A stretch of DNA of 64,000 nucleotides, taken from IMG/VR virus record IMGVR_UViG_3300045015_000053; one strand, written 5' to 3'. This stretch comes from a virus. Taxonomy: Duplodnaviria > Caudoviricetes. The position numbers were made by a program, and so were the translations under genes. The first letter of the stretch is position 1. Each line of letters begins with the position of its first letter. Positions 23,020 to 42,740 of this stretch are shown piece after piece. A model generated the notes under the pieces. That model did not search any database. It had not been told where the DNA came from and saw nothing but the letters and a program-made list of their open reading frames with translations.

Positions 23020-23049
23020 GTTGTCCTTGTTCTGCTTTCCCATCACGGT

Positions 23050-23056
23050 TATGTAG
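23050..23056 (-). promoter_or_regulatory. late-promoter-like box CTACATA
   Basis: 6 nt upstream of the ATG at 23043. Confidence 0.5.
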
Positions 23057-23150
23057 TTACGCGGAACCGAACTCAAACTGGCAGTTTTTCGATCTCGGCA
23101 TTGTCACAATCGAGCGTTTCGGTTACGCTTTCTCGAAACGGAGGTTTACG

Positions 23151-26392: not shown

Positions 26393-26463
26393 CCACCTTT
26401 GGGCCAGTGGCTGGCCAGCGATCTCTAAAATCGCGCACATCGGTTCGATTCCGATAAGGTGGG
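26393..26463 (+). tRNA. amber-suppressor tRNA, anticodon CUA
   Basis: Full cloverleaf: acceptor CCACCTT/AAGGTGG, D stem GGCC/GGCC with GG in the loop, anticodon stem GCGAT/ATCGC with loop CT-CTA-AA, 4-nt variable loop, T arm ATCGG-TTCGATT-CCGAT, G73; CCA not encoded. Confidence 0.9.
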
Positions 26464-26528
26464 CTGAATCTAAAACAAAATTTGCATTGGTCAGAACGAC
26501 AATCGGTTCGATCCCCACAAGGTGGGCT
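26464..26528 (+). pseudogene. degenerate tandem copy of the tRNA 3' half
   Basis: ATCGGTTCGATCCCCACAAGGTGGGCT vs ATCGGTTCGATTCCGATAAGGTGGGCT, plus a TCTAAAA remnant. Confidence 0.6.
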
Positions 26529-26542
26529 GGAGGAAAACAAAA

Positions 26543-27100
26543 ATGAACGCTAATGATCTCGTCAACGTATTGTCCGGCACGACCACTCGCAGGGGCTTCC
26601 TCGCCGAGACAATGGGTGTTGTGACCGCTCCGTTCTTCGCCACTGACAACCTGCTGGCGGATGTCCCTCTCGTTCAGGAACACATCGTCGCCCGCGCCGA
26701 CCGCCCGAACGGGAACAAACGGATCTACCCGCTCTCCGTGCTGCAAAGAGTTGTCGCAGATTCGGCCGACGCGGTCGCGCACAGACAGATGATCGGTCAG
26801 TTGGGGATGCCCGCCGACAGCATCATCCACTTCAGTCAGGCGAGCCACATTGTTAGGTCGCTCAAACTGAGTGACTTCGGCCCGCAGATCGGGTGGCAGT
26901 TGATCGCCGAAATCGAACTGCTCGCCACCCCCTGCGGCGTCATCCTGAAGAAGCTGTTGGCATCGCCCGGACAGGTGGCGTTCAGGACGGCCGGGGTGGG
27001 CCACGGCAAGATCAACGATGACGGCATTCTGGTGATTGACGATTCTTACAAGCTGGTCGGCGTTCACGCTGTTCCGGCAAAAGACGCCGTGTGGATTTGA
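26543..27100 (+). CDS. T4 gp21-like prohead protease homologue with catalytic residues replaced and a Tat-like signal
   Basis: ADRPNGNKRIYP, GQLGMP (vs GELDHP), SQASHIV, IELLATPCG, VAFRTAG (vs GVSSRG); N-terminal TRRGFL. Confidence 0.75.
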   Translation: MNANDLVNVLSGTTTRRGFLAETMGVVTAPFFATDNLLADVPLVQEHIVARADRPNGNKRIYPLSVLQRVVADSADAVAHRQMIGQLGMPADSIIHFSQASHIVRSLKLSDFGPQIGWQLIAEIELLATPCGVILKKLLASPGQVAFRTAGVGHGKINDDGILVIDDSYKLVGVHAVPAKDAVWI

Positions 27101-27101
27101 C

Positions 27102-27308
27102 ATGAAAGACAAGCCCCTGCCGCCGCTCAAACTGGTTGACGCCTCGCTTGACAAGCAGAACGCGGCGGCACTATACTTCACGCTCGTTTTCGAGGACGCG
27201 GCCGGTCGCAAGTGGACGACTTGGGGCGGCAAGTTCTTCGATGATCTCAAACCCGTGGGTGAACCGTGCCAGCAGACAGAATGTCCCGCAAATACGCCGA
27301 AGGCGTAG
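27102..27308 (+). CDS. hypothetical protein; may be the 5' part of a frameshifted gene with 27281-27466
   Basis: 28-nt overlap with the next ORF. Confidence 0.6.
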   Translation: MKDKPLPPLKLVDASLDKQNAAALYFTLVFEDAAGRKWTTWGGKFFDDLKPVGEPCQQTECPANTPKA

Positions 27309-27466
27309 TGAAAACCCTCGGCGAGTGCGTCGAGAAGATCGACGCCGTGATCGAACACGAACTGGCGCACAACAACTTCGAGGCGGTCGCCACGATGAAG
27401 GAGATGCGCGGCCGGTGGGAAACAAAAATCGAAGAAGCCGAAAAACGCCTGAAGGAAGACGACTAA
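27281..27466 (+). CDS. hypothetical helical protein
   Basis: MSRKYAEGVVKTLGECVEK... Confidence 0.65.
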   Translation: MSRKYAEGVVKTLGECVEKIDAVIEHELAHNNFEAVATMKEMRGRWETKIEEAEKRLKEDD

Positions 27467-27469
27467 ACG

Positions 27470-27481
27470 GTCTATACTGGC
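27470..27481 (+). promoter_or_regulatory. GTCTATACTGGC promoter box
   Basis: Motif copy immediately after a stop codon. Confidence 0.65.
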
Positions 27482-27542
27482 AAGGCGAAAGGGGGCAAGT
27501 CGCCCCCTCAAACGAAACGAAAACCCTGACCGAGTTGCGACA

Positions 27543-27893
27543 ATGTCCACCAACGATCTGGATCGCCTGAACAACACCGCGCCGCACATGCACGGCAAGA
27601 AGCTCGCCGACGTGAACCTCGAACAACTCTGCACCGCCATCGAAGTGTGGAACTACACGAACGCCGGCAAGAAGTCCAACGGCACGCAGACCTTCGACAT
27701 GCGGGACATCATCGAGGGTGCCGCCCTGTTCGCCTCGCCCGATACGCCGTGGGTGGTGATCGAGAGCGGCCCGCTCACCGGCCACCGCTACTGCAAGACG
27801 CAGCACGGGCTGGTCCTGCAAGCCCCCAAGCCCTCGAACGAGATGAGCCTGCTGGCCGAGGCGACCGCGCGGACCCTCGGCGTCAAGGTCTAA
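27543..27893 (+). CDS. hypothetical protein
   Basis: Clean ORF with biased codons. Confidence 0.75.
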   Translation: MSTNDLDRLNNTAPHMHGKKLADVNLEQLCTAIEVWNYTNAGKKSNGTQTFDMRDIIEGAALFASPDTPWVVIESGPLTGHRYCKTQHGLVLQAPKPSNEMSLLAEATARTLGVKV

Positions 27894-27906
27894 ACCGGAG
27901 TGAGCA

Positions 27907-28179
27907 ATGGCGACGTTACGGGAACTACGGACGAACGCGGGCCTCAGCCAGTTCCGATTGGCCGAACTAGCTGGTGTTCCGTTCCGCGAAGCGAGCCGAC
28001 TGGAACACGGTCGGCCCGTCCCGCCCGAAACGAAGGCCAAACTGCTCGCCTACTTCGGCGTGACCGAGTTCGATGATCCTCCGATGGACGCGCCGGCCGA
28101 CAACCCGGCGCGTCCATTCCCAGACGATGATGACGACCTCTACCGTTGTCAGTGGCCTTTACCCATTCCGAGGCTGTAA
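27907..28179 (+). CDS. XRE/Cro-family HTH regulator
   Basis: LRELRTNAGLSQFRLAELAGV...SRLEHG. Confidence 0.85.
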   Translation: MATLRELRTNAGLSQFRLAELAGVPFREASRLEHGRPVPPETKAKLLAYFGVTEFDDPPMDAPADNPARPFPDDDDDLYRCQWPLPIPRL

Positions 28180-28181
28180 AC

Positions 28182-28382
28182 ATGATCGGTGCTTTCATCG
28201 GGTTCGTCATCAGTTTGCCGTTCGTGATCGCGGTCGATAGCGTCAGCAACTGGTGGATGCTGTGGGCCGCTCTGATCGGCTTCTTCTTTGAACTCGTCGT
28301 CCGGCTCGGCGGCGGGGAAGGATTCGGTGACGCCCTCTTACACTTCGGAGCATGGTCATGGGTCGCAAGCGAGACAACGTGA
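28182..28382 (+). CDS. small membrane protein
   Basis: Two hydrophobic segments; GAGG RBS. Confidence 0.7.
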   Translation: MIGAFIGFVISLPFVIAVDSVSNWWMLWAALIGFFFELVVRLGGGEGFGDALLHFGAWSWVASETT

Positions 28383-28702
28383 AAGCTCTCGAAAAGTTCA
28401 GCACCGCCGAACTCGAAGGGGAGATCGTCAGACGCAAACAGGGCAGCAGCGAGTGGGGCTATGTCGTCATGACCAATGACGAGGACTATGACGACAAGCG
28501 CCCACGATTCGGCATCGTTAACGTCAAATACTGGCAGAAAAACGAGGGACTCGAAGATCGCTGCCTCGGCCACGACGTTCGTCTCCCTCGCGGGTTTCAC
28601 GAGTCGCAAGAGTCCCAGTATACATACAGCGGCACTCTGAAGGACGGGAAGACGGCACTTGATAGTGCCGGTTTCAAGTACCTCGGCGAGTGTGACGATT
28701 AA
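28352..28702 (+). CDS. hypothetical protein
   Basis: GGAG RBS. Confidence 0.7.
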   Translation: MVMGRKRDNVKALEKFSTAELEGEIVRRKQGSSEWGYVVMTNDEDYDDKRPRFGIVNVKYWQKNEGLEDRCLGHDVRLPRGFHESQESQYTYSGTLKDGKTALDSAGFKYLGECDD

Positions 28703-28711
28703 GGTGCAATC

Positions 28712-28918
28712 ATGGCAGAAGAACGGAACAAGAAGTGTCCGGCGTGCGGTGGGACGGGAGAACTCGCCACCTCTCACCGCTTTACCTGCTACGAGTGTAA
28801 CGGCCACGGCAAAGTCACCGACTCCGAACACGCGAGGATCGCCAAGAGCGAGGCCGAAATCGGCCGTGCCTTTGACGCCAGACTGACCGCGAGTGAATAC
28901 CGACAGATGGGTGGATGA
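28712..28918 (+). CDS. DnaJ-type zinc-finger small protein
   Basis: CPACGGTG and CYECNGHG (CxxCxGxG twice). Confidence 0.8.
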   Translation: MAEERNKKCPACGGTGELATSHRFTCYECNGHGKVTDSEHARIAKSEAEIGRAFDARLTASEYRQMGG

Positions 28919-29337
28919 TGTTCGCGGTTCTTGTTTCTGACGGCACGCTGGAAAACAAGTGGGGACTGGACATGTTCGCCGTACTCTGTTCGGACGGTGC
29001 CATAACCGTCGAAGACGTGACCGGAGCCTGCCGCCGCGAGCAGTGGGTTCCTTTGGCAGTCACCCGGCCGCGAGGTCAGCCCGAAGCCAACCCCACCCTT
29101 CTGCTGTTCGACAACGAGCGAACCGCGCGGAAGTTCGCGATGAAGAACTTCCCGAAGGACTGGCTCGTCTCGGTCGTACAACTCGCCGACGCCGACCACG
29201 AGTGGGTGAAAAACAGGGGCTGGCTGACGGAGAAAATCGACTATCCACGCACCATGAACTCACACCCGGACTACGAATTGACATACGCCGTCCTCGAATT
29301 TAGGAACGTCCCCGATGTCGGCATCATCCGAATGTGA
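28915..29337 (+). CDS. hypothetical protein
   Basis: Coupled ORF. Confidence 0.75.
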   Translation: MMFAVLVSDGTLENKWGLDMFAVLCSDGAITVEDVTGACRREQWVPLAVTRPRGQPEANPTLLLFDNERTARKFAMKNFPKDWLVSVVQLADADHEWVKNRGWLTEKIDYPRTMNSHPDYELTYAVLEFRNVPDVGIIRM

Positions 29338-30286
29338 CAACGATCTCGATGCCAAAAGCCGAGTGGCCAGAGAGGTTTTCGACCAACTGCCTCTCCGCAA
29401 GAAGGTCGAGTTTGTCCTGCTTTACGGGGAGTGGCAGTACCGCCCCGCAGAGTCAATCGCGGCCGAACTCGGCGTCACGGTGAAAGAGGTCCAGTGGATT
29501 CTGGGCGAGTTGGTGTTCGACGGTATTGCAGTGCTTCACTCTCACAGCGATTCATACAGACACGTTGAGAGGACGAACGTGGAAATGAGCCGCGAAGAGA
29601 AGTCGCTCAAAGAAGCGATGTTGTGGGAGAAAGCTCGGCCAATCGATCCGAACACATTCCTGCCGATAGACGATCTTGCTTCGGGCGAATCCGTACTCGA
29701 TACGGATCAAGATGAGATGTGTGAAACCGCAAACGCTGGATTCTCTATGTCAGCGAATCCACGACCGCAAAGACAAAAACATCGCCGACACATGAGGGAC
29801 TTGGTCATGTTGACTGGATACCTGCCGGAAAACCTGATCGTCAAGGCGATCACGGACGCCATGATGCACGCCCGCGAGGTGTCCGAGCGGGAACACATCA
29901 AGGCCGACCGCATCGAGCGTGTCAACCAGTTCATCGTCAGCCTGCGCCGTCAACTCGGCTACATGGACGACAAGTACCGTACCGAACGTGAGTACCTGTC
30001 CGCGAAGCTCACGAACAAGGAAGTCTGGTACGACATTGGCGTGTTGAACCCGGAACGCATCTGGGGCATCCACGACATGCCGTACACCACCGTTCAGCGG
30101 TGGGTTCTCCAAGCTCAAGCCGGAATTTCTGTCACCGGCAACCTTCAGCAAGCCATTGATGGTAGCCTGATGAACCTGAAGGGTACGATCTTGGTGGCGC
30201 AGGGTTGCAACCTTGTCACCGACCAACTCAACAAGGACGCGGACAAGGTGGTTTCTGAAATGGCGGCAATCGCCGCCAATCTCTAA
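29315..30286 (+). CDS. protein with an N-terminal HTH (start uncertain)
   Basis: PAESIAAELGVTVKEVQWILGEL. Confidence 0.65.
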   Translation: MSASSECDNDLDAKSRVAREVFDQLPLRKKVEFVLLYGEWQYRPAESIAAELGVTVKEVQWILGELVFDGIAVLHSHSDSYRHVERTNVEMSREEKSLKEAMLWEKARPIDPNTFLPIDDLASGESVLDTDQDEMCETANAGFSMSANPRPQRQKHRRHMRDLVMLTGYLPENLIVKAITDAMMHAREVSEREHIKADRIERVNQFIVSLRRQLGYMDDKYRTEREYLSAKLTNKEVWYDIGVLNPERIWGIHDMPYTTVQRWVLQAQAGISVTGNLQQAIDGSLMNLKGTILVAQGCNLVTDQLNKDADKVVSEMAAIAANL

Positions 30287-30300
30287 GAGGACCGAACGTC

Positions 30301-31035
30301 ATGGGCAACGATCCGCAGACACAACAGCCGACCAACTTCGACCGCTTCTTCGCCGTTCTCGGATTCGATCCGGGGAAGGAAACGGGTCCGAAGGAAGAGG
30401 TCAAGGGACTCGGTCTGTTCGCCGAGGCGATGCGTGAAGTCGTCAAGGAACGCACCGAGGCCAACAAGGTCAAGGCGGTCGCCGCGATCCGTCAGGTGAT
30501 CGACCTGAAGACCAAGTGGGACGACGAGGAACGCAAGTTCCTCGTGAGCAAGAACAAGTTCTTCAACGACTTTGGCAAGGTCGTCGCGAAGATCGAAGCC
30601 ATGTCCCGTGGTGAAAGCCTCACCAGCATCGAAGCGTCCGAAGCCCGCGAGAAGGAAGGCGTCGAGAACGTCGTGCCACAAACGGCCGGCGCGGAGTTCG
30701 ACCGCCTGTTCAAGACGCTCGGTTTCGATCCGAGCCGCGAGGTCGGGCCGAAGGAAGAGGTCAGTGGTTCCGGCCTGTTCGCCGAGGCGATGAAGGAAGT
30801 CGTCAAGGAGCGGACGGAGGCGAACAAGGTCAAGGCCGTGGCGGTCATCCGTCAGGTGATCGACCTGAAAGCCAAGTGGGACGAAGAGGAACGCAAGTTC
30901 AACTCCGCGAAGAAGAAGTTCTTCAAGGAGTTCGACAAGGCGCTCAAGCGGATCGAGGGGATGGCTCGCGGGGAGAACCTCGCGAGCGTCGAAGCGAAAG
31001 AGAAGGAAGAAGAAGGCGGCAAGAAGGACGAGTAA
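30301..31035 (+). CDS. hypothetical protein made of two tandem repeats of about 120 aa
   Basis: FDR.F..LGFDP..E.GPKEEV.G.GLFAEAM.EVVKERTEANKVKAV occurs twice. Confidence 0.85.
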   Translation: MGNDPQTQQPTNFDRFFAVLGFDPGKETGPKEEVKGLGLFAEAMREVVKERTEANKVKAVAAIRQVIDLKTKWDDEERKFLVSKNKFFNDFGKVVAKIEAMSRGESLTSIEASEAREKEGVENVVPQTAGAEFDRLFKTLGFDPSREVGPKEEVSGSGLFAEAMKEVVKERTEANKVKAVAVIRQVIDLKAKWDEEERKFNSAKKKFFKEFDKALKRIEGMARGENLASVEAKEKEEEGGKKDE

Positions 31036-32115
31036 TCAGTCCGAATCGGCGATCACGACCCACGCATTGTGGGTCGTGTCCCATTTCGGCAGTTCGGCGA
31101 TGCCACTCTGTTCGTAGCCGAAGCTGATCTTGAAGTCGTCCCCGTACCGGCCTTTGGTCTTGGTGTTAACCTTGCCCATGAGCCGGACATTTCTTTTCAT
31201 GTACTCCGAATACCCGTAGTTGCTTATGCCATTGTAAAAATCATCGATGTAGTCAGGTACGTCGAGTTCGATCACGCCCTGGCTCCAGCCGTGGTATTGC
31301 ACCATCGCTCTGTCGCCGTCCCGCATCAGTTTCGGCCATTTTACATCGGCCATAAACCGTTTCACGAATTGCGGTTTGGTCATCTTTGTTTCGTCGGCCA
31401 GATCTTCGTGTACTTCCGGTGGTTGGAACTCGGCCATCGCCTCTGCCACTTCGGGTTCGCGTAGGAAGTCGATCTTCTGGGCCTTCTCGCCACGCAGTTT
31501 GTTGATGGCGTCTTTCATCTCGTCAACTTTGCCGCCCATCCTCTGAACCCACTCCTTGATCACCTCGGCCATAACCGCCGCGAAGATCTTGTCGGCGATG
31601 TTGTCGTAGCCGTTCGCGAGGCCGGCGACGAACCGCTTGGTCCCTTCCGCCCAAGCCGCACTGCCCACGTCGTCAAAGAGTTCTCCGTCAACCTCGAAGA
31701 CGGCGTCAATGATCGCTTCCGTCGTCTCGTCGTCCAGTTCTTCTTTTTCTTTGAGGTGCTTCCGCAGTTCTTCCATGTGCTTGTTGACTTCGAGGACGTA
31801 AGCCGCTGTTTTACCGGCACGCCACACCTTCGACCCACCCGACACAGCCCCGGATACGATCTTCCAGATACTTGTTGCCGCGCCTACAACGTTGCCCGTC
31901 GCCGCACTAGCCGCCAACCCGGTGACGCCTTTGGCGAGGCTCCAGGCGTCACCTGCGGCACCGGCCACGTCTTTGTTCCTCATCGCGTGTGCGGTCGCCA
32001 CACTCGAAGTCGATGGCTTGCCCAAGATCTTGTCCTTCAAGTCTTTCAGCCTGCCCTCGTCAATGAGCGGATCGCGGTTCTGAACGTATTCGTTGAATGA
32101 TAGTGGTCACGCCAT
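31036..32115 (-). CDS. putative capsid-internal protein; natural start at 32115 is interrupted by TGA at codon 3
   Basis: GGAGG-ctaa-ATG GCG TGA CCA CTA TCA TTC AAC GAA... is in frame with ORF 31036-32040. Confidence 0.65.
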
Positions 32116-32179
32116 TTAGCCTCCGTTTTTAGTTAGACTTGGTTGGTGAACTTTGCCGACCCGCGACTATAATTTCATC

Positions 32180-32692
32180 ATGAGCAAAGAACAAACAATT
32201 CAGCACATCAACCGCGTCCGCAAGCTGATGAGCCGGGCCGTCTCCAGCCTCGTCGTTCGCGCCGTCAAACACGATGAGAGCAAGCTCAAGTCGCCCGAAG
32301 TCGAGATCTTCGAGGAATACACACCAAAACTTGCCGGAAGCACATACGGCAGCGAAGAATACGAGAGCTTCCGCAAGGCGATGAAACCGGGCCTTGACCA
32401 TCACTACGCACACAATTCTCATCATCCTGAGCATTTCGCCGATGGCGTTCACGGGATGAGTCTTTTGGACCTTTTGGAAATGGTGTGCGACTGGAAGGCC
32501 GCGACCGAACGACACAACGACGGGGACATCCTCAAGAGCCTCGAAATCAACCAGAAGCGGTTCGGCTACGACGACAATCTGAAGAAGATCTTCTTCAACA
32601 CCGTCAAGGAACTCGGTTTTCTGAACGAAGTGCCTACAGAACAACCGAAGCCGAACCCGGATCGTCCGGTATACCCGCGAAAAGAGGGATAA
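32180..32692 (+). CDS. DUF5662-like HD-type protein
   Basis: HDESKL, HHYAHNSHHPEH, MSLLDLLEMVCDWKAA; TATAAT at 32168. Confidence 0.75.
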   Translation: MSKEQTIQHINRVRKLMSRAVSSLVVRAVKHDESKLKSPEVEIFEEYTPKLAGSTYGSEEYESFRKAMKPGLDHHYAHNSHHPEHFADGVHGMSLLDLLEMVCDWKAATERHNDGDILKSLEINQKRFGYDDNLKKIFFNTVKELGFLNEVPTEQPKPNPDRPVYPRKEG

Positions 32693-33072
32693 TGTCAGCC
32701 TACGAACTTGCAGAAACACTCAAAGAGTTGTTACTCGAAGATGGCCGCGAAAATCCCTTCTACATGTCAAGCGACGACAAGGGTGACAGGTACAAAGCGG
32801 CCGTTACCGAAGTCATCAAAAGACTTCAACACAGATTCGACAAAAACATGCCCAAAGAGGTTGTCACCGTTGGCGATCTCCGCGCCGCGTTGAGCTATTC
32901 GGAGGACGAAGAACCCGTCGTCTTCGATCTCAAGGAAGACACAGTTTACGGGCAGAAGACCGTTCCGCTCAAATGCAGCGGCGTCGGTTCCAGTGGCGGC
33001 GGCAGGATCACGGTCCTCTGGCTCGACAAGAAAAACTACCCAAAAGACTACCTCCCGAAGAATGATGACTGA
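32692..33072 (+). CDS. hypothetical protein
   Basis: TAATG coupling. Confidence 0.75.
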   Translation: MSAYELAETLKELLLEDGRENPFYMSSDDKGDRYKAAVTEVIKRLQHRFDKNMPKEVVTVGDLRAALSYSEDEEPVVFDLKEDTVYGQKTVPLKCSGVGSSGGGRITVLWLDKKNYPKDYLPKNDD

Positions 33073-33077
33073 ATCCG

Positions 33078-33089
33078 GTCTATACTGAC
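33078..33089 (+). promoter_or_regulatory. GTCTATACTGAC promoter box
   Basis: Exact motif. Confidence 0.75.
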
Positions 33090-33118
33090 CCGGATTCCAT
33101 ACTCAACCAGAGGCTGTC

Positions 33119-33718
33119 ATGGAAAGCGCCATTTATGGCAAAGGCATGGCCGGCAAGGGAGTTACGCCGTCCATCGCCCTTTGCAATCCGAAGTACGCTC
33201 ACAACGTGGGTACGATTGTCCGCGCCGCTTCTTGTTTCGGAGCGAAGCAAGTTTGGTTTTCCGGCAACCGGGTGTCGCTCGACCCGAAGAAGGGGGAGCG
33301 GTTGCCGCGAGAGGAGCGGATGAAGGGCTACAAGAACGTCGAACTGCGTCAGTACGACTACTTCTTCGACATGTTCGAGAAGGACGTGGTTCCGGTGGCG
33401 ATTGAGCTTCGCCCCGGCAGCGAGTTGTTGACGGACTTCGTCCACCCGGAGAAGGCGTTGTACGTCTTCGGGCCGGAAGACGGCAGCATCCCGCAAGTCA
33501 TGATGCGTCACTGCCATCGGTTCGTCGTGATCCCCACACACCACTGCGTCAACCTCGCGGCGGCGGTCTACATGATCCTGTACGACCGCATGTTGAAGCG
33601 GCACCAGACCGGCGAGGAACCGATCACCTCGATGGACGAAATCCTGAAAGAGAATCGGGGCTGGTCGTCGCCCGACAACAACGGCGAAACCCGTGACTTG
33701 CTGGAAACGATGAAGTAA
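33119..33718 (+). CDS. SpoU/TrmH-family SPOUT RNA 2'-O-methyltransferase
   Basis: NPKYAHNVGTIVRAASCFG, YVFGPEDG, IPTHHCVNLAAA. Confidence 0.9.
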   Translation: MESAIYGKGMAGKGVTPSIALCNPKYAHNVGTIVRAASCFGAKQVWFSGNRVSLDPKKGERLPREERMKGYKNVELRQYDYFFDMFEKDVVPVAIELRPGSELLTDFVHPEKALYVFGPEDGSIPQVMMRHCHRFVVIPTHHCVNLAAAVYMILYDRMLKRHQTGEEPITSMDEILKENRGWSSPDNNGETRDLLETMK

Positions 33719-33774
33719 AAGGCTCCCCGTGGCACAAACCACGGGGGGTTTTGCTAAAAATGGCCTATAGTGAC
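33717..33774 (+). terminator. terminator followed by a GCCTATAGTGAC promoter box
   Basis: CTCCCCGTGG/CCACGGGGGG stem plus TTTT; box at 33763-33774. Confidence 0.7.
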
Positions 33775-33802
33775 GGTGTTTCCACAAGAAGGGGATGTTG
33801 CC

Positions 33803-34315
33803 GTGAACTATGCTCGTAAGCTTCTCGCTTGGACGAACCGCTCCGAGAAGCCGTATGCGACTCACTCGGTCGTTTTGGTCGTAGAAGACAACAAGCGGAA
33901 AGGCACCTTCGGGCTGTGCATCAACCGCCCCGCGCCGATCCTGCCGTGTACCTGTGGTCAGTGTCCGGTTCCGCCCGTGCCTCTGTACCTCGGCGGGCCG
34001 AAGCATCTTGACAACCGATACTTTCTTCTCCATGATCAACCGCTGGCTGCGGACAAGCGTGACCGCGTCATCGAAAAGGTGTACGTCTCATGCCCATACG
34101 CTCTGAAGGAACTTCAGGGTGAAGGCAAGGACCGGGGCAAGATGATCACCGGGTACTTCCACTGGCTTCCCGGCGAACTCGAAGAAGAGGTCGCGATGGG
34201 CTGGTGGGAGGTCAATGACAAGCCCACGCACGAACAGGTTCTTGTTTCGGAACCGCGCCACGTTTGGGGGAAACTGGTCCCCCTGACCGAACGGATCTAT
34301 CCGAGTGCGAACTGA
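33803..34315 (+). CDS. YqgE/AlgH (DUF179) family protein
   Basis: SVVLVV...GTFGLCINRP, YLGGP, GYFHWLPGELEEE...W. Confidence 0.85.
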   Translation: MNYARKLLAWTNRSEKPYATHSVVLVVEDNKRKGTFGLCINRPAPILPCTCGQCPVPPVPLYLGGPKHLDNRYFLLHDQPLAADKRDRVIEKVYVSCPYALKELQGEGKDRGKMITGYFHWLPGELEEEVAMGWWEVNDKPTHEQVLVSEPRHVWGKLVPLTERIYPSAN

Positions 34316-35379: not shown

Positions 35380-35382
35380 CAA

Positions 35383-35607
35383 ATGACTCTCGAAGAACTG
35401 AAAGAAATCGTGATCGAGAAGTTCAAGGCGTCTTTGATTCAACGCAATCAGTGGTCAAAGGTGATCATTGATTCCCCAGACGTTTTGCGAGCCGCCATTC
35501 TTCAAGAGGACGGGATGATTATCGCTTACGGCGACATCATCAAAACGATTGACCCGGATTGGGAACTGGACCCCAATTTCAAAGCATACGAAGTACAAAC
35601 AGGGTGA
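35383..35607 (+). CDS. hypothetical protein
   Basis: ORF in operon context. Confidence 0.7.
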   Translation: MTLEELKEIVIEKFKASLIQRNQWSKVIIDSPDVLRAAILQEDGMIIAYGDIIKTIDPDWELDPNFKAYEVQTG

Positions 35608-35614
35608 GGAAGTC

Positions 35615-35923
35615 ATGACGCTTCAAGAGATCTATGCGATCATCTGGAAAGAAGGCGTGAATTCGCCTTCTTTGCCGCGAGGGTGGCTTCTTCCGCAAAA
35701 CCTGAAACCGGCCCAGATCAACGAACATTTCCCGGTCGATGCTTTGGTCATGGTTATGGCCGATTCTTACGGGGAACGCGATTTCGTTTACCCGAATCTG
35801 AGAAAGAGATCGTGGTGGTTCGGTCGTGTCGAGGCAGCAACAAGTGACAGGAACGTTCGTGTCAGAAGTACGTTTTCGGGAGCAGTTCGTTCGGTTCCGT
35901 ACAATAAGATCAGGATTTACTAA
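35615..35923 (+). CDS. hypothetical protein
   Basis: GAGGAA RBS. Confidence 0.7.
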   Translation: MTLQEIYAIIWKEGVNSPSLPRGWLLPQNLKPAQINEHFPVDALVMVMADSYGERDFVYPNLRKRSWWFGRVEAATSDRNVRVRSTFSGAVRSVPYNKIRIY

Positions 35924-35924
35924 C

Positions 35925-36362
35925 ATGACCGTCGTCTGCCAGAACCGCAAAGCCCGCTTCGATTATGAGGTTGTCGAAACCGTCGAAGCGGGTATTGTGC
36001 TGAAAGGCACGGAAATCAAATCCGTGCGAAACCACCGCGTTTCTCTCGACGGAGCGTATGCCAGCGTGGACGCCGGAAACGTTACGCTAGTCGGCTGCAA
36101 CATCGAGCCGTATTCGCACGGCAATGTTCACAATCACGAAGCCAAGCGTGACCGACGCCTGTTGCTCAACCGGAGCGAGATCGACAAGATCGCGAGCAAA
36201 GCGGCGGTGAGGGGGTTCACGTTGATCCCGCTGTCGATGTACATCAAGGACGGTCGCGCCAAGATCGAACTGGCCGTCTGTCGCGGTCGGCAGACGCACG
36301 ACAAGCGGCACGCCATCAAGGACCGCGAAGTGAAGAAGGCGATGAAACGGGGAAAATTCTGA
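35925..36362 (+). CDS. smpB: SsrA-binding protein SmpB
   Basis: NRKARFDY, EAGIVLKGTEIKSVR, RRLLL, GFTLIPL, HDKR. Confidence 0.97.
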   Translation: MTVVCQNRKARFDYEVVETVEAGIVLKGTEIKSVRNHRVSLDGAYASVDAGNVTLVGCNIEPYSHGNVHNHEAKRDRRLLLNRSEIDKIASKAAVRGFTLIPLSMYIKDGRAKIELAVCRGRQTHDKRHAIKDREVKKAMKRGKF

Positions 36363-36432
36363 TTTTTCATGCCCGCGCAGGCGGTCGAGGCGACATACCT
36401 CTATAGAAGACCGCTCCCACATGAGGTGTATC

Positions 36433-36915
36433 ATGACGAATCTGGCAAAGCTCCATCAGGCGGCTCGGTTAATCGCCGAGGTCAACGCAACCCTCAACAA
36501 CACCAGTCGCAAGTGCGACTGCTGCGGGTTGACGGTCTACGAGAAACCCGACGAGTGGGATCTGAAACAGATGCTCTCGGCCGCGTTGAGCAGAGTCGAA
36601 AAGGTCGTCGGCAAGATGAAAAACAACGACAAAAAAGACCAGCGGGTCACGCCCGCTGCGATGATTCTGGATGTGGACGGGGTCGCCATCGTCAACAAAA
36701 AAGATGGCGTCAACCCGGATCAAGATCCGGCCAACATGCTGTTGTTCGACCGCTTCGGTGACGGGCGGTGGTACATCGCCTATCTTTCCAAAAAGACTTT
36801 GGGGGATAGTTGGGTTATGGTGACCGTGTATTCCACCGAAAACGGCAAGCGTGTCTCGTGTGATTACGGAGTTTCACCCGAAAACCAACTCACACGCATC
36901 CGTAAGGTTTCGTAA
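36433..36915 (+). CDS. hypothetical protein (possibly two fused ORFs)
   Basis: GAGGTG RBS; CDCC motif. Confidence 0.7.
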   Translation: MTNLAKLHQAARLIAEVNATLNNTSRKCDCCGLTVYEKPDEWDLKQMLSAALSRVEKVVGKMKNNDKKDQRVTPAAMILDVDGVAIVNKKDGVNPDQDPANMLLFDRFGDGRWYIAYLSKKTLGDSWVMVTVYSTENGKRVSCDYGVSPENQLTRIRKVS

Positions 36916-36948
36916 GAAAAGAAACCCGAAATTCCTATCAACTGCGTG

Positions 36949-36956
36949 TATTTATA
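36949..36956 (-). promoter_or_regulatory. exact T4 late promoter consensus TATAAATA with no obvious downstream gene
   Basis: The + strand reads TATTTATA. Confidence 0.4.
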
Positions 36957-37008
36957 GGAACGGCGGCGCGAATCCCACGCCGCAAACTTTTCCAAGTAAA
37001 AGAGGAAT

Positions 37009-37515
37009 ATGGGTTCCAAACCACACAGCAGGCCGTGGCACAACGGCACAATCGAAGACTGCGAAATCAAAGAGCCGAGGCTCTACAATCGCGAAGAAGT
37101 CGATCAGCCGATGCTCGACATTCGCGAAGAGGCCAACAAAGCTCGCGAGAGCGGGATCATCGGCGAGTCCGGCGCGGAAGCATTCTTCTGCAACACCACC
37201 GTCTGCATCAAAGAGAAGAATGACGCCTTGAAGTTGTCGGGCCTCCAGTGCCACGACGACCTCATCATGGATCTGTTCAAAGAGAAGTGCGAGCAGTACA
37301 AACGCGGTCACGACCGCATCAAAGACATCCGCGAGGAACAGGTGCAGCAAGAAAAGCTGCTCGAAGCTCTCGCTTTGAAGATCGGTTACGACGCGGTTTC
37401 CTTCTCGGAGTACGGCGTCAAAGTCAGTCGCGGGTTGTTGAAGCAGAACTTCCCCTCGATTTACGACAATCGCGGGCGTAGAATCGAAAACTACGGTGAC
37501 GGTTGGGATGCCTGA
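37009..37515 (+). CDS. hypothetical protein
   Basis: GAGGA RBS. Confidence 0.8.
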   Translation: MGSKPHSRPWHNGTIEDCEIKEPRLYNREEVDQPMLDIREEANKARESGIIGESGAEAFFCNTTVCIKEKNDALKLSGLQCHDDLIMDLFKEKCEQYKRGHDRIKDIREEQVQQEKLLEALALKIGYDAVSFSEYGVKVSRGLLKQNFPSIYDNRGRRIENYGDGWDA

Positions 37516-37524
37516 GATTTTTGG

Positions 37525-37553
37525 TTGACAACGGTGCGAAACTGGCCTACATT
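37525..37553 (+). promoter_or_regulatory. sigma70 promoter TTGACA-N17-TACATT
   Basis: Perfect -35 and canonical spacing. Confidence 0.85.
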
Positions 37554-37590
37554 GATTTCATCAGGCCGCAGCACCACCCGTGGGCCGCAA

Positions 37591-37620
37591 CCCCGGAGCG
37601 AGCCAAAATTCGCTCCGGGG
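37591..37620 (+). other. 11-bp GC-rich hairpin in the 5' leader of the Pth2-like gene
   Basis: CCCCGGAGCGA-gccaaaat-TCGCTCCGGGG. Confidence 0.75.
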
Positions 37621-37645
37621 CATTTAACTCAAACTGGATACTACG

Positions 37646-38026
37646 ATGAAGACTCAGATCACTGCCGAACACCTGTAGGTTTCTGAAGAGAACACTCCGT
37701 ACTGTTACCTCTTCTTGCGGGAAGATCTTCCCCGCGTCTACAGTGCGGTCCAAGCGTGCCATGCCGCCATCGGCGGCGGGCAGTTCTTGATCCCCCAAAA
37801 CATCCCACACCCGCACCTCGTTCTGCTCAGGGCTTCCTCCGAGCAGGAGCTTCGCAACATCGCGTCCCGTTTGGAACGCGACGGGGTACGTCATTACGTT
37901 TTCACCGAGCCAGACATCGGTAATCAAACTACTGCGTTGATTACCGAGCCGGTATATGGTGACAAGCGTCGAGCGTTCCGTCGTTATCGCTGTGTGAACG
38001 AACCGCCGAAATTAGATAGCGGATAA
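37646..38026 (+). CDS. peptidyl-tRNA hydrolase II (Pth2)-like protein with an in-frame TAG at codon 11
   Basis: MKTQITAEHL*VSEENTPYCYLFLREDL...AVQACHAA...LVLLRA..E.EL...F.EPDIGNQTTAL; TAG at 37676-37678. Confidence 0.75.
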
Positions 38027-38064
38027 TTGTATGGAAACACATATGTGTTTCCATACATGGCGGC

Positions 38065-38544
38065 ATGGAAACAATCACTTGTATTCGATGCCGCCAATCC
38101 AAACCTCCAGAAGCTTTTCGTTTTAGAAACAAGTCTCTGGGGAAACGAGACACGCGATGTCGCGAATGTTTTTGCGACTATCACAAGCTGGTTTACGACC
38201 GGCTAACACCAGAACAAAAACAACAAAAAACGAAGTCTTCAACCGACTGTCGGAGGCGACTTAGGGCGAAGCTACATGCGGTGGTGTGGAATTACCTGTC
38301 TACGCACCCATGTGTGGATTGCGGTGAAAACGACCCGGTCGTTCTGGAGTTCGATCACCGCGATCCTGAGCAAAAAGTAGAAACGATCTGCGGCTTGCTC
38401 AGAAATCTGGCTGACAACCACACGCTGCTGACTGAAATTGCAAAATGCGACGTAAGGTGTGCCAATTGCCACCGACGCAAAACAGCAAAGCAATTTGGTT
38501 GGCACGCATTACGAGAGACTTATTATGAACACGAAAACGAATGA
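38065..38544 (+). CDS. HNH homing endonuclease
   Basis: CIRC, CRECF, HPCVDCGE, LEFDHRDP, CANCHRRKT; lower GC than flanking genes. Confidence 0.9.
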   Translation: METITCIRCRQSKPPEAFRFRNKSLGKRDTRCRECFCDYHKLVYDRLTPEQKQQKTKSSTDCRRRLRAKLHAVVWNYLSTHPCVDCGENDPVVLEFDHRDPEQKVETICGLLRNLADNHTLLTEIAKCDVRCANCHRRKTAKQFGWHALRETYYEHENE

Positions 38545-39016
38545 AAAGGGTGCCTTCGAGGGTCGATTTGGTTGGCACCCGTGCGACCGGGAAACCTACC
38601 TCAAGCTGAAGCTGATCCACAAGGTCTTCTGGGAGTCGATCTTCCGGTCGGCCCAGTGGTATCGGTGGGACCGCAAGGAACCCCAGAACCGCGTACAGCG
38701 GTTCCATCGGGTCGAGGGCAAGCGGGAGAAGCTGTTTCCGCCGAAGCCGCTGCCCGAACCGAAGCTTCCGCCGTACCTGCTGAAGATCGAACACAAGAAG
38801 ATCCACCGGACGTACACCGGGGACTACAAGCAGTGGATCGACCACGAGAAAGAAGTGGTCTGGTACACGCTGAAGATGAACCCGGACCTGTACGCGGCCG
38901 TCGCGGACTTCCAGAACGCGCGGACGCCGGTGATCGAAAGTCAGGTTCGGCCGCTGTCCTGCACGGCCGAAAAGATCGAAACCCTGTACCAGCAAGCCGT
39001 GGAGTGGCTTCGCTGA
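38525..39016 (+). CDS. hypothetical phage protein (FGWHPCD..TYLKLK motif)
   Basis: Clean ORF with high GC3. Confidence 0.8.
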   Translation: MNTKTNEKGAFEGRFGWHPCDRETYLKLKLIHKVFWESIFRSAQWYRWDRKEPQNRVQRFHRVEGKREKLFPPKPLPEPKLPPYLLKIEHKKIHRTYTGDYKQWIDHEKEVVWYTLKMNPDLYAAVADFQNARTPVIESQVRPLSCTAEKIETLYQQAVEWLR

Positions 39017-39021
39017 GAAAC

Positions 39022-39063
39022 AAGAAGCCCGGTAGTCAAAAAGACTACCGGGCTTCTTACATA
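39022..39063 (+). terminator. terminator hairpin running into a late-like box TTACATA
   Basis: AAGAAGCCCGGTAGTC-aaaaa-GACTACCGGGCTTCTT; box at 39057-39063, ATG at 39068. Confidence 0.7.
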
Positions 39064-39067
39064 ACGT

Positions 39068-39652
39068 ATGCAAACGTCTTTCCTTTTGTGGATCGAAAAC
39101 AAAGATCCCGAACTCGCCCGTCTGTTGGAAGCGGAATGGGGCCGACGCGACCGCAAGGGCCGCGTGGGACTCATCGCCGGTTCCGCCGCCGCTGCCGCCG
39201 CTGCTCTGGCTGGAGCTTGGTGGATGGGCGGCAGCGATGCAAAACCCACTTCCCACGCCGCGCCCCTGCCCGCACAAGTTGCTAAGAAAGAAGCCTCTCC
39301 GAAGCCGGTTTCGACGGAATTAGACTGGTACACGGGGCCGGACAAAGAGTATATTTTCAAGTACGCTTGTGACCCGTCGAACAACGGAAACACTTACTTC
39401 CGTTACTATGGTAGAGACGGGGCGACACAAGAGGGTTGGATCGCCAGAGTTCAGATGCCGGCTTCCGACACACAACCTCTGCGAGACGAAGACCTCGAAG
39501 CCCGGTTCAAGAGGCTCGCCCACGACGCCACGGACAAGATGAAGGACGTAAAGTGGCAGATCATAGCAAAAGGCCGAAAGAATCCGTACCCCAGAGAGGC
39601 GGGGACGGTGGAGATCGTGCTGTACGCCAAAAAACCAGTCGGAGAAAGATGA
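39068..39652 (+). CDS. putative capsid-internal protein with a TM segment
   Basis: MQTSFLLWIENKDPELARLLEAE; Ala-rich hydrophobic stretch. Confidence 0.7.
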   Translation: MQTSFLLWIENKDPELARLLEAEWGRRDRKGRVGLIAGSAAAAAAALAGAWWMGGSDAKPTSHAAPLPAQVAKKEASPKPVSTELDWYTGPDKEYIFKYACDPSNNGNTYFRYYGRDGATQEGWIARVQMPASDTQPLRDEDLEARFKRLAHDATDKMKDVKWQIIAKGRKNPYPREAGTVEIVLYAKKPVGER

Positions 39653-40650
39653 GCGAGACTGAAACCCAGTCGCCCGCCCGTTACCGTATTCAAGTAATTG
39701 TGAACCGCGAGATCATCTGCTCGCCCGCGAACGTGGACGAAACCGTGTCCTTCGAGTTGGGACGGCTCGCCAGTATGGGCTGCACATGCGTCGGCCACAA
39801 CGTCACCAAGATCAAAGAAAAGCCCCAGAAAAAGCGGCTCGGCGAGTTCACGCTCGATGACGTGATCCCCTACATCGCTACCTGCTCCCAACGAAACTAC
39901 GTCGCCAACGGCCACACCTACACCGTGCGAATGAACTCGCAGCGGTACTTCGTGTTCCGCGACAGTCCGAGTTGCGTGGCGTGCGGCTTGACCGGCACCA
40001 AGATGATCTTGGAACAGCATCCCGGTGACAAAACCGCTCACTTCAACCTGTACGCCGAAGAGAACGGCGAACTGGTGCTGATGACGAAGGACCACATCCG
40101 CGCCAGGAGTGCCGGCGGCGAGGACCGCCACAGCAACTACCAGACGATGTGCAGTATCTGCAACAACATCAAGGCACACGAGTCGGTCGCACTGGAAGAC
40201 CTCAGAAATCTGAGAGCGATCTACAACCGGCACGTCAACACGATGGCGAAGCGGGAATTGCACAAGGTTCTCGAAGAGGCCAAGAGACAGGTCGTCAGGA
40301 AGTCACTGCAAGAGGCGAAATGGGACGCAACTTACATTACGCAGCAGGATCTGAACGTTTTTGTCTATACTGACGGGGAACTGGAAGCGGTCAGCGTTTA
40401 CGCGCCGCTCGACGGCGAACACGTCTCTTGCATCTGCAAGGGGTGTCCGATGTCGGGAACGGTAGTCAACGGCTGGTTCGTGGCCGAACTCGTGGACGGC
40501 ACCAAAGTGCGTATGCCGTCTCGGTTCGTCAGACTCCTCGAAAAGAGTGGCGACGATGAAACGGGACTGTCGGACTCTGGAACTGCGTGTAATGACTTCG
40601 CCGAAGACTTGGGAGAAGTTCAAGCAGAAGGTGCGGGAAGCACGTCCTGA
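39649..40650 (+). CDS. HNH-domain protein
   Basis: CVACG, MTKDHIRARSAGGED, NYQTMCSICNNIKA. Confidence 0.85.
   Translation: MSETETQSPARYRIQVIVNREIICSPANVDETVSFELGRLASMGCTCVGHNVTKIKEKPQKKRLGEFTLDDVIPYIATCSQRNYVANGHTYTVRMNSQRYFVFRDSPSCVACGLTGTKMILEQHPGDKTAHFNLYAEENGELVLMTKDHIRARSAGGEDRHSNYQTMCSICNNIKAHESVALEDLRNLRAIYNRHVNTMAKRELHKVLEEAKRQVVRKSLQEAKWDATYITQQDLNVFVYTDGELEAVSVYAPLDGEHVSCICKGCPMSGTVVNGWFVAELVDGTKVRMPSRFVRLLEKSGDDETGLSDSGTACNDFAEDLGEVQAEGAGSTS
40363..40374 (+). promoter_or_regulatory. GTCTATACTGAC box inside coding sequence
   Basis: Exact motif about 220 nt upstream of ATG 40592. Confidence 0.5.
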
Positions 40651-41023
40651 TTTCCCGCCCTACGCCCGCGCCTTCTGTGCCATGCTCCTGTACGTCTTGG
40701 AGAACGCCGACGAAGGCGTCTTCAAAAGCAACCAGACCGCCATTCTCGCCCGCCTTCCCTTCACTCAGTACAACATGATGGTTGGGCCTGAGCGGGACAG
40801 GCAGCTTTTCTTCTACACCCCGTTCGGCGACACGATCTTCGTGACGGACGAAAAGCACTTTTTGGACGAAACGACCTCAAGTGACGCACTTCTGGAGCCG
40901 ATCCAGATTGTGTACCCCGATTGCCTCGACCGCGACGAACTGAAATGGACGCGATTCCCGCTCCCGTTCGGTTCACACGGCCAGAACGCGATCAACCTGA
41001 ACTCATTCGGAAAATGGTCATGA
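40592..41023 (+). CDS. hypothetical protein
   Basis: ORF coupled to the downstream gene. Confidence 0.7.
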   Translation: MTSPKTWEKFKQKVREARPDFPPYARAFCAMLLYVLENADEGVFKSNQTAILARLPFTQYNMMVGPERDRQLFFYTPFGDTIFVTDEKHFLDETTSSDALLEPIQIVYPDCLDRDELKWTRFPLPFGSHGQNAINLNSFGKWS

Positions 41024-41466
41024 AAGATCTTCTTCGCAATCTGCATGTCGTCACCACGCACCAAACGTGGAGCCTGTTCGTGAAACAGGTTTCTGCAATC
41101 CCAGAGGCCACGCCAGAAACCGCCTTCCGTCAGATTCTGAAAATGGCAATTCAGACCTTCCCCGCAGCACGGTATTCTGACAACATGAAGGCACTGCGCA
41201 AAAGATGGGAAGGGAAAGCGGCCAGCGTCAAGGCGTGGACTGCCAGCATCGGTCTGCCTAGCGAGGCCGAAACCTTCCAGATCATCCCGGCCGAAAATAG
41301 GCTTGTGTTTTCCGCCGAGAAGTGTGGTGTGCCGTTTTTGGAAGACATGATCCAGATCGCATATCCTGAGTGCATGTACAAGCCGTTTAACTGGATGCCG
41401 TTTAGCCGTCAAGTAGTTTTTGAAGGTCAAAACAAGTCCGGCATTAACATTGGAGACGTGAAGTGA
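41020..41466 (+). CDS. hypothetical protein
   Basis: ATGA coupling. Confidence 0.75.
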   Translation: MKDLLRNLHVVTTHQTWSLFVKQVSAIPEATPETAFRQILKMAIQTFPAARYSDNMKALRKRWEGKAASVKAWTASIGLPSEAETFQIIPAENRLVFSAEKCGVPFLEDMIQIAYPECMYKPFNWMPFSRQVVFEGQNKSGINIGDVK

Positions 41467-42740
41467 ACCCCAACATCCGCCCACTCCCCGACAAAATCGG
41501 CGTCGGCTTCCTGAGTCCTGAAAAGATCGGCGCGAGCGATTACCGCGAGGAGCGGGCCGCTCACGTCTGGCACTACTTCTTCACACCAGAACGTTGGACT
41601 TGGCCGCTGTGGGACTCGGCCGATCAAGAGAAACCCGGCCCGTCGTTCAAGATCGACGCCTTCTCGCCCAATCTCAACAAGAGCCTGCACTTCGGCCATT
41701 TGCGTCAACTCGCACTGGCCCATTGCATCGGCCGTCTACTGCCACGCACGCAATTCGTTTCGCTGTTGGGATGCACCGGCATCCTTCAGTCGGCACAAGA
41801 CGAACTGAAGGACTGGCTCGATTTCCTCAACATGCGTCCGAAACTGTACTACGACGCCCTGATGCCGCACGACCCGACCATCGTGGAGCGTCACGATGGA
41901 GAAGGCGACAAGGCCGGCGCGATGGTGTGGGACGGACCACTCGGCCCGGTCGTCGTCATGCGGAAGCCGGACGAATCGGGTCACCGCCGTCCGACTTATG
42001 CCTTCCACGATCTCGCTTTTGCGAAGATCGTGGGACCGGACTATTACATCACCGGCGCGGAACAAGTTGAACACTTCCGCAGTCTGGGGTTGGGCAACAA
42101 GCACCTGCCGATGGGCCTCGTCGTTGACGCCGAGGGCAAAAAGCTGAAGAGTCGTTCCGGTGACGCGATGACGGCCAAAGAGGGCTTCGAGGCGGTCGAA
42201 CTCGCCATGAAGCCGGTTCCAGATCCGAAGAAGATCGTCTGGAACATCGTGGCGTGGAACATGCTGTCGGTCGGCCGCAGCACGAACGTCAAGTTCGAGC
42301 CGGAAAAGTGGGTGAAGCCGGAAGCTCCGGGGATGTACTGCTCGTACACATGGGCGCGGCTGTACTCCGCTCTGGGCGGGCTGTACCGTGGCGACGGCAG
42401 TGACATGACCCAGAGCGATGCGGAACTGGCGGGGTATTCTCAGTACCGCCACTACTACATCGCGAAGGCTCGCCAGAGCATGGACCCGGCTCCGCTGGCG
42501 AACTACCTGTACGATCTGTGCCGCCGCGCTACGAAGGCGTACCACAGCGAGCGTATTCGTGACGGTCGTCGCGGGTTCCAGTTCGCGGTGAGCCACGCGA
42601 TGAACGGCATCTACGACTGCATGAACGCCCTCGGCCTGTTCCCAATCAAGATGCGGGAGGAAGACGATGTTCGAGACAACGGGGCCGCATTACTGCCCGA
42701 ACTGCGAGCCGATACTGAACAAGAAAGACCGTCGTGTTGA
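41463..42740 (+). CDS. argS: minimal arginyl-tRNA synthetase-like protein
   Basis: SPNLNKSLHFGHLR (HIGH), TYAFHDLA, YITGAEQVEHF, KKLKSRSG (KMSKS), YCSYTWARLYS and YLYDLCRRATKAYH (DALR domain), LGLFPIKM. Confidence 0.85.
   Translation: MNPNIRPLPDKIGVGFLSPEKIGASDYREERAAHVWHYFFTPERWTWPLWDSADQEKPGPSFKIDAFSPNLNKSLHFGHLRQLALAHCIGRLLPRTQFVSLLGCTGILQSAQDELKDWLDFLNMRPKLYYDALMPHDPTIVERHDGEGDKAGAMVWDGPLGPVVVMRKPDESGHRRPTYAFHDLAFAKIVGPDYYITGAEQVEHFRSLGLGNKHLPMGLVVDAEGKKLKSRSGDAMTAKEGFEAVELAMKPVPDPKKIVWNIVAWNMLSVGRSTNVKFEPEKWVKPEAPGMYCSYTWARLYSALGGLYRGDGSDMTQSDAELAGYSQYRHYYIAKARQSMDPAPLANYLYDLCRRATKAYHSERIRDGRRGFQFAVSHAMNGIYDCMNALGLFPIKMREEDDVRDNGAALLPELRADTEQERPSC

Follow-up and report, generated by a model that had tools for sequence, protein, structure and literature searches.

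A suppressor tRNA and a stop-gated Pth2-like gene as a probable cassette in a freshwater huge phage

The stretch of DNA analysed here (hereafter, the window) comprises 64,000 nucleotides of the Caudoviricetes record IMGVR_UViG_3300045015_000053. It encodes a suppressor tRNA with anticodon CUA and, further downstream, a gene for a protein resembling peptidyl-tRNA hydrolase 2 (Pth2), whose reading frame is interrupted near its start by an in-frame TAG. Comparison with related loci indicates that the two elements are probably a dispersed copy of a conserved phage cassette, in which a suppressor tRNA accompanies a Pth2-like gene closed near its start by the stop that the tRNA reads. Since this lock-and-key design recurs in dozens of distant phages, it would represent a natural translational switch and not a broken gene. 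An earlier prediction, made from the sequence of the window by itself (hereafter, the original prediction), held that no hydrolase is produced unless amber is read through, which would make the arrangement a switch rather than a reassignment of the code; this proposal is supported by the comparison, through the conserved stop, the co-localisation of the tRNA and the covariation of stop and anticodon described below.

The gated gene and the tRNA in the window

The window has a G+C content of 57% and derives from a large, high-G+C freshwater phage (lake water); the same stretch is also found within a 155-kb contig from a lake-water metagenome. The features of the tRNA and the gated gene are as follows, with the evidence for each.

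26393–26464, + strand: suppressor tRNA, anticodon CUA (reads UAG); ARAGORN, Rfam, cloverleaf fold
37525–37553, + strand: candidate sigma-70-like promoter, TTGACA-17 nt-TACATT, 10 of 12 matches; consensus scan, a pattern match only
37594–37623, + strand: G+C-rich 11-bp hairpin in what is presumed to be the 5' leader, its end 22 nt upstream of the ATG; sequence and fold
37646–37675, + strand: ten-codon leader, ATG and nine sense codons, with a weak GGA Shine-Dalgarno site ahead
37676–37678, + strand: gating amber TAG, codon 11, next base G (next codon GTT); sequence, four assemblies, position in the family
37679–38026, + strand: Pth2-fold domain, 115 codons and a TAA stop (38024–38026); profile, AlphaFold, Foldseek

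The frame 37646–38026 agrees with the original description of a Pth2-like gene whose only ATG lies upstream of an in-frame TAG at 37676. Ahead of the domain, the frame offers no canonical start other than the ATG at 37646. Past the TAG, the single canonical start (ATG, GTG or TTG) is TTG 37715; it falls within the first beta strand and has no Shine-Dalgarno site. Contigs from four lake-water metagenome runs, one of which may be the source of the window, span the stretch with zero differences. A pseudogene, or a sequencing or assembly error at the TAG, was rejected because the codon is identical in the four assemblies and its position is conserved in relatives. The promoter candidate directly follows the stop of the upstream gene. 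The hairpin is present in both the minimum-energy and centroid folds of 37516–37720 (z −3.1); a leader structure and a weak terminator of the upstream gene are its candidate roles.

The tRNA(CUA), described as canonical in the original prediction, is identified by ARAGORN as the one and only tRNA of the window. It aligns over its full length with the Rfam family RF00005 (53.9 bits, with a cut-off of 29, in a local search), and its minimum-energy fold is a cloverleaf (z −3.0). The molecule has a 7-bp acceptor stem with C1-G72 and G73, an anticodon loop of CU-CUA-AA and a 4-nt variable loop with no long variable arm; CCA is not encoded. No consistent isotype emerged for this tRNA, which in a nearest-neighbour comparison resembles none of 341 typed phage tRNAs. 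The gated gene is found 11.2 kb downstream of it on the same strand. No tmRNA, the partner of SmpB in trans-translation, was detected in the window, either by ARAGORN or by a whole-window Rfam search at gathering thresholds; the latter listed no tRNA either, an omission taken as a filter miss. The 3' part of the tRNA (T arm, 3' acceptor strand and trailer) recurs 63 nt downstream of the original, at 26502–26544, as a 43-nt, 79% identical copy in which the T stem no longer pairs; this may be what is left of a tandem duplication of the tRNA, or else an att-like repeat.

Elsewhere in the window, TAG functions as a normal stop. Most well-framed open reading frames (ORFs), filtered by G+C content at third codon positions (GC3), contain no internal TAG, and TAG codons fall at gene ends or upstream of starts. 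A rough GC3-filtered set comprises 84 ORFs, of which 49 are closed by TGA, 21 by TAA and 14 by TAG. The TAG group includes an antisense shadow of the Pth2-like gene, leaving about 13 genes, so that the earlier count of more than ten TAG-ended genes stands. No other convincing succession of leader, TAG, purine and long ORF was found in the 64 kb; early-TAG candidates at 710 and 39412 were rejected on account of normal starts just after the TAG. The Pth2-like gene is the only one in the window that needs TAG as a sense codon, in disagreement with genome-wide reassignment of TAG (code 15). Judged from the sequence, the arrangement within these 64 kb is a putative gene-specific device and not a reassignment of the code.

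The stop and its tRNA in related phages

The conservation of this arrangement was assessed in 90 related loci, comprising 80 IMG/VR loci obtained with 10-kb flanks by a profile search together with GenBank phage loci. The original prediction had named, as a finding that would count against it, homologues without the upstream in-frame ATG and TAG. The design is present in relatives, and 79 of the 90 loci have TAG as the first in-frame stop ahead of the domain. A tblastn search against GenBank phages identified homologues in 37 records, all from jumbo or huge phages, and in several of these records no coding sequence is annotated under the match. Every unfused homologue that was fetched has a Shine-Dalgarno site, an ATG, one to three codons, a TAG and then the conserved domain; these come from Acinetobacter ME3, Ralstonia RsoM2USA, Yersinia fHe-Yen9-04, Pectobacterium CBB and three uncultured huge phages.

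A strict gating test was defined by an ATG leader of 12 codons or fewer, a distance of no more than 16 codons from the stop to the first strand, and the absence of any canonical start at six codons or more ahead of the R-x-D motif in that strand. After removal of identical N-termini, 44 distinct variants pass. The leader is two codons long in 28 of them and mostly two to four, placing the ten codons of the window at the long end. Directly after the gating TAG, 31 variants have A and 13 have G, with C and T never seen; where TAG terminates long ORFs of these loci, a purine comes next in 83 of 151 cases (55%). A 3' purine is the classical context for efficient amber suppression, as Bossi (1983) and Miller and Albertini (1983) are reported to have described. 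In a maximum-likelihood tree of the domain, TAG gating is distributed across all deep clades (50 of 62 rows), and loss of gating in favour of an ordinary ATG has occurred six times or more. A second in-frame TAG is seen inside the domain, in the loop after the first helix, in loci L009, L017, L019–L024 and L027, reflecting either double gating or a wider reassignment of TAG. A coding-density test on the related loci gave no discrimination, the gain from reading TAG as sense being no larger than that from reading TGA as sense.

The co-occurrence check suggested with the original prediction was carried out on the flanks. In 63 of the 80 IMG/VR loci, ARAGORN detected a suppressor tRNA within the flanks retrieved, with anticodon CUA in 59, UCA in three and UUA in one, and on the same strand as the gene in all but two. 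The tRNA is often located 50–500 bp upstream of the leader or approximately 1 kb downstream of the gene, and in most relatives the separation is 50 bp to 5 kb. When the gated loci are restricted to non-redundant ones flanked by 5 kb or more in each direction, a tRNA(CUA) is present within 10 kb in 21 of 25.

In three loci (L043, L062 and L059) the Shine-Dalgarno site and ATG leader are followed by TGA as the gating stop, and in each of them a tRNA(UCA) is found 58–258 bp upstream, the anticodon again matching the stop. L043 and L062 belong to separate clades among TAG-gated relatives, and L059 is not included in the tree. This covariation of stop and anticodon is the decisive observation for the proposed link between tRNA and gene. 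Across the family the suppressor tRNAs are very diverse. Locus L049 carries both tRNA(CUA) and tRNA(UCA) (12598–12669), and L033 has a tRNA(UUA), an ochre reader, at 8782–8857, which is 1.1 kb upstream of a Pth2-like gene with an ordinary ATG start.

The cultured carriers all have a tRNA(CUA), situated 418 bp upstream of the gene in ME3 and 3–4 kb downstream in CBB, GAP32 and fHe-Yen9-04 (L069, L083 and L076). RsoM2USA also has one, for which its authors only assumed many targets (PMC8504454), and XacN1 has two, for which its authors sought targets and found none (PMC5852040). With respect to the features of the cassette, the window agrees with its relatives in the match of anticodon to stop and in the succession of short ATG leader, stop, purine and domain with no alternative start. 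It departs from them in that the tRNA is not within a few kilobases of the gene, and the copy is in this sense dispersed.

The Pth2-like protein, a proposed mechanism and its alternatives

The window protein alone falls below the cut-off of the Pfam family PTH2 (PF01981), with an E-value of 7e-4 and 20.3 bits against a cut-off of 23. The homologue from XacN1 is above it (25.3 bits), and a profile built from 40 homologues matches solved Pth2 structures with E-values of 3.9e-9 to 6e-5. The AlphaFold model of the window protein (pLDDT 92.2, pTM 0.85) has the alpha/beta fold of Pth2, and its 13 best Foldseek matches in the PDB all belong to the Pth2 family, with TM scores of 0.63–0.69 in most. Numbered from the codon after the TAG, the invariant residues are D16, V24, Q25, H28, A29, L58, E77 and T85, of which E77 and T85 correspond in the alignment to the Asp and Thr of canonical Pth2. 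By its modelled fold, the product is a divergent Pth2-fold protein and a predicted tRNA hydrolase.

In a family of at least 364 members, the Pth2-like domain is joined to an N-terminal domain of about 175 residues with an H...HD...H...D signature, giving fusions of about 280 amino acids (proteins P0001–P0120; loci L001 from XacN1, L002 from Xoo-sp13, L007 from Stenotrophomonas CM1, L018 and L036). Stand-alone HD forms exist, one of them named 'HD superfamily phosphodiesterase' by its source, and the reverse order, Pth2-like then HD, is seen in P0099. In a model of the fusion (pLDDT 95.6), the C-terminal part matches Pth2 structures and the N-terminal part matches those of class II tRNA nucleotidyltransferases (3wfo–3wfs, E 4e-4 to 2e-2). 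The fusions, in which the HD domain is similar to a portion of CCA-adding enzymes, support a predicted action at tRNA 3' ends. In the fused genes of the five loci, a Shine-Dalgarno site, ATG, AAA and TAG lie just upstream of the annotated ATG, which is four codons after the TAG, so that gating is ambiguous there. No HD-domain partner was found anywhere in the window; the idea that the gene upstream of the Pth2-like gene (37009–37515) is the detached N-terminal domain of an XacN1-type fusion was rejected for lack of similarity.

As the sequence shows, ribosomes that start at ATG 37646 encounter UAG at codon 11, and no start beyond the TAG allows the complete fold. In the mechanism that we propose, without charged tRNA(CUA), release factor 1 (RF1) would release a 10-residue peptide and no hydrolase would be made; with charged tRNA(CUA), a 126-residue protein would be formed, its rate of synthesis depending on how the suppressor competes with RF1. 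Any inserted amino acid would be tolerated because the TAG sits in the unconserved N-terminal tail, and only a short peptide would be wasted on termination. The early position of the stop and the 3' purine would both favour read-through. The product may then hydrolyse the ester bond at the 3' end of tRNA, a step suggested less firmly by the Pth2 fold and the HD fusions, and the level of hydrolase would thereby be tied to the strength of UAG read-through.

What the enzyme would accomplish is a matter for speculation. It could quite conceivably clear peptidyl-tRNA by-products of read-through; that it limits the suppressor itself is also speculative and is improbable. Tentatively, the cassette as a whole may be a self-contained read-through sensor and actuator, in which the early UAG would gauge the ratio of charged suppressor to RF1, and the enzyme, HD-fused in some phages, would act on tRNA 3' ends and either restrain the suppressor or clear peptidyl-tRNA.

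Several observations weigh against a gated cassette of this kind. The related loci share ancestry, and the counts given above overstate the number of independent events. The window copy is at the edge of the range of the family in its 11.2-kb distance, 10-codon leader and weak Shine-Dalgarno site, and its protein occupies the second-longest branch of the tree. A strong suppressor should be costly to a phage in which about 13 window genes end in TAG. Gating is not obligatory, as an ordinary ATG is found with the tRNA kept nearby in L037 (106 bp), L045 and L061; because these ungated forms retain a tRNA(CUA), the partnership of tRNA and protein would go beyond gating. Lastly, the catalytic residues of archaeal Pth2 are the lysine of a GK motif and a conserved aspartate. 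The canonical 'GK' lysine is not conserved in the phage family, in which a two-residue segment is missing or replaced (gap or Q), and the window residue at the lysine position is, by reading of the sequence, Tyr. For this reason peptidyl-tRNA hydrolase chemistry is not assured.

Three of these points can be turned in favour of an alternative that retains the same gating and that we regard as unlikely, namely a negative-feedback homeostat in which the enzyme deacylates the suppressor tRNA, in its aminoacyl or peptidyl form. A rise in read-through would then yield more enzyme and leave less of the suppressor charged, holding UAG read-through at a low level that a genome still stopping at TAG can tolerate. 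The persistence of the pairing in L037, L045 and L061, where gating has been lost, suggests that the protein acts on, or because of, the tRNA, and unrestrained suppression would be costly with TAG ending some 13 genes of the window. The loss of the canonical lysine further suggests an altered substrate or chemistry. Canonical Pth2 enzymes, however, act on N-blocked (peptidyl) tRNA and not on free aminoacyl-tRNA. There is also no sign of specificity for one tRNA, the suppressor tRNAs are very varied, and the homeostat does not account for the retention of a suppressor by the phage in the first place.

Termination followed by reinitiation would make tRNA(CUA) irrelevant: the leader would be a mini-ORF, and ribosomes stopping at the TAG would resume translation at, or close to, the following codon. 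In relatives this codon is frequently ATT, a weak start, and the fused forms offer an ATG four codons on. Relatives also have codons for N, T, G, A, E or S at that position, however, and in the window the codon is GTT, with no ATG, GTG, TTG, ATT, ATA, ATC or CTG before TTG 37715. As reinitiation leaves unexplained both the TAG in 79 of 90 loci and the tRNA(UCA) that accompanies the TGA variants, it appears quite improbable.

A wider, code 15-like reassignment of TAG, for example in late genes outside the window, would place the Pth2-like gene among many that are recoded. The window covers only a small part of the genome, and the few relatives with a second TAG inside the domain could be read in this way. 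In the 64 kb, which include the head maturation protease gene, no other well-framed ORF needs TAG as sense, and TAG terminates about 13 genes; moreover, the extreme N-terminal position of the TAG is conserved in cultured phages that use the standard code. These observations render a wider reassignment more improbable still. Least probable of all is an ordinary gene starting at TTG 37715 with the upstream ATG and TAG as chance intergenic features: the TTG is in frame and opens a 103-codon ORF under table 11, but it has no Shine-Dalgarno site, its use at codon 24 would remove a conserved and confidently modelled first beta strand along with homology that extends upstream to about residue 15 of the ATG-started protein, and the design of ATG, leader and TAG recurs in 44 distinct variants.

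Other genes of the window and comparison with known systems

The original prediction had joined the tRNA and the Pth2-like gene to four further translation genes as one linked ribosome-rescue system. All four genes were found, with SmpB matched strongly, SpoU clearly, and the ArgRS-like and YqeY-like proteins weakly.

35826–36362: ORF for SmpB, PF01668, E 3.6e-54
33119–33718: SpoU methylase, E 2.9e-17
41463–42740: ArgRS-like protein, weak DALR and class I matches, E 0.002–0.005
62050–62628: YqeY-like protein, E 0.0013 in Pfam and 1e-10 in PHROGs ('tRNA amidotransferase')

Their linkage was not borne out. In the 80 related loci, the 10 kb on either side of the cassette contain no SmpB, ArgRS-like or YqeY gene, and a SpoU gene in one case only. 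In that locus (L042, 9260–9700), a SpoU-type methyltransferase 29% identical to the window protein of 33119–33718 lies directly upstream of tRNA(CUA) and the gated gene. The window SpoU protein is weakly similar to TrmL and TrmJ, which methylate the 2'-O of tRNA position 34 or 32. The ArgRS-like protein (425 amino acids, versus approximately 580) retains an HFGH motif and a DALR-like domain and lacks the N-terminal domain. Against TIGR00456 (argS) it scores 42 bits, with a cut-off of 262, and only the HIGH region and the DALR part align, so that it does not qualify as a full-length synthetase; its phage homologues were found in two other huge phages only, and nothing links it to tRNA(CUA). A correspondence between the window YqeY and the 'amidotransferase' gene near the Pth2-like gene of XacN1 was rejected, as the two have no similarity. 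These results suggest that the four genes are part of the broad translation toolkit typical of huge phages and not of one amber-gated operon.

Just downstream of the Pth2-like gene, two HNH endonuclease genes (38065–38544 and 39436–40650, + strand) flank a gene at 38459–39016. Homologues of the latter directly follow the Pth2-like gene in L020, L021, L024 and L027 and lie within 2 kb of it in L003 and L011, and part of 39436–40650 is 45–48% identical to genes near the cassette in L011, L014, L015 and L022. Elsewhere the window encodes a homologue of the head maturation protease, a UvrD-like helicase, a sigma-70-like protein and other phage-type genes. The helicase (19048–23076, − strand; 1341 residues) has a LAGLIDADG domain at residues 542–598, between its helicase parts, that looks like an intein or homing-endonuclease insertion. 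An ADP-ribosylglycohydrolase (2565–3614, E 6e-42), a fusion of glycosyltransferase-9 and methyltransferase (44008–45591, − strand) and the protein like sigma-70 region 2 (50204–51205) are phage accessory genes outside the present finding.

A conserved gene that needs exactly tRNA(CUA), and that shifts to TGA in the company of tRNA(UCA), would provide a concrete client for the orphan suppressor tRNAs of standard-code phages. It would illustrate the use of stop-codon suppression as gene-specific control rather than as a change of code and, the client being a predicted tRNA hydrolase, would tie the switch to quality control of translation. Standard gene callers routinely miss or truncate the gated gene. 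Should the sensor-actuator proposal be true, the cassette would be the first natural client for orphan suppressor tRNAs and a natural, portable and anticodon-matched translational gate.

The closest known parallel is with code 15 phages (crAss-like, Lak and others), in which TAG encodes Gln. There too a phage tRNA(CUA) overrides host termination at UAG, and genes containing TAG depend on it. In the window, in contrast, TAG stays an ordinary stop (about 13 of 84 ORFs), and a single gene in 64 kb has it as sense, at the extreme N-terminus. Furthermore, the client gene and the tRNA described here travel as a cassette in which stop and anticodon change together.

The autoregulation of prfB, encoding release factor 2, similarly ties the output of a translation-factor gene to termination efficiency by means of an early in-frame stop. 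That system requires frameshifting by +1, promoted by a Shine-Dalgarno-like stimulator, and the factor it produces reads the stop; in the present case the frame is zero, the stop would be decoded by a tRNA, and the product has a Pth2 fold and not that of a release factor.

A further parallel is offered by the bar minigenes of phage lambda, which are ORFs of two or three codons whose peptidyl-tRNA drops off and which are linked to Pth. They resemble the gated leaders in having a strong Shine-Dalgarno site, an ATG, one to three codons and a stop, with inefficient termination and high drop-off of peptidyl-tRNA, and their tie to a peptidyl-tRNA hydrolase is a suggestive parallel. The minigenes, however, are not in frame with a downstream protein and have no suppressor tRNA, and the window leader is ten codons long.

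With canonical Pth2 of archaea and eukaryotes (PDB codes 3erj, 2zv3, 1wn2, 1q7s and 1xty), the phage proteins share the fold, the R-x-D strand, the Q-x-x-H-A helix motif, and an acidic residue and Thr. They differ in that the 'GK' segment is absent or replaced across the phage family, and the single window sequence falls below the Pfam cut-off. PTH2 in jumbo phages was noted by Iyer et al. (2021), who did not mention the in-frame stop or a link to a tRNA (PMC7824862), and no description was found in the literature that joins a phage suppressor tRNA with PTH2 or mentions the in-frame stop. PTH2 in jumbo phages and phage suppressor tRNAs are thus each already known, and what appears to be new is their link. 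To this the window adds a dispersed copy with a ten-codon leader, in a high-G+C freshwater huge phage, with the TAG checked in four assemblies.

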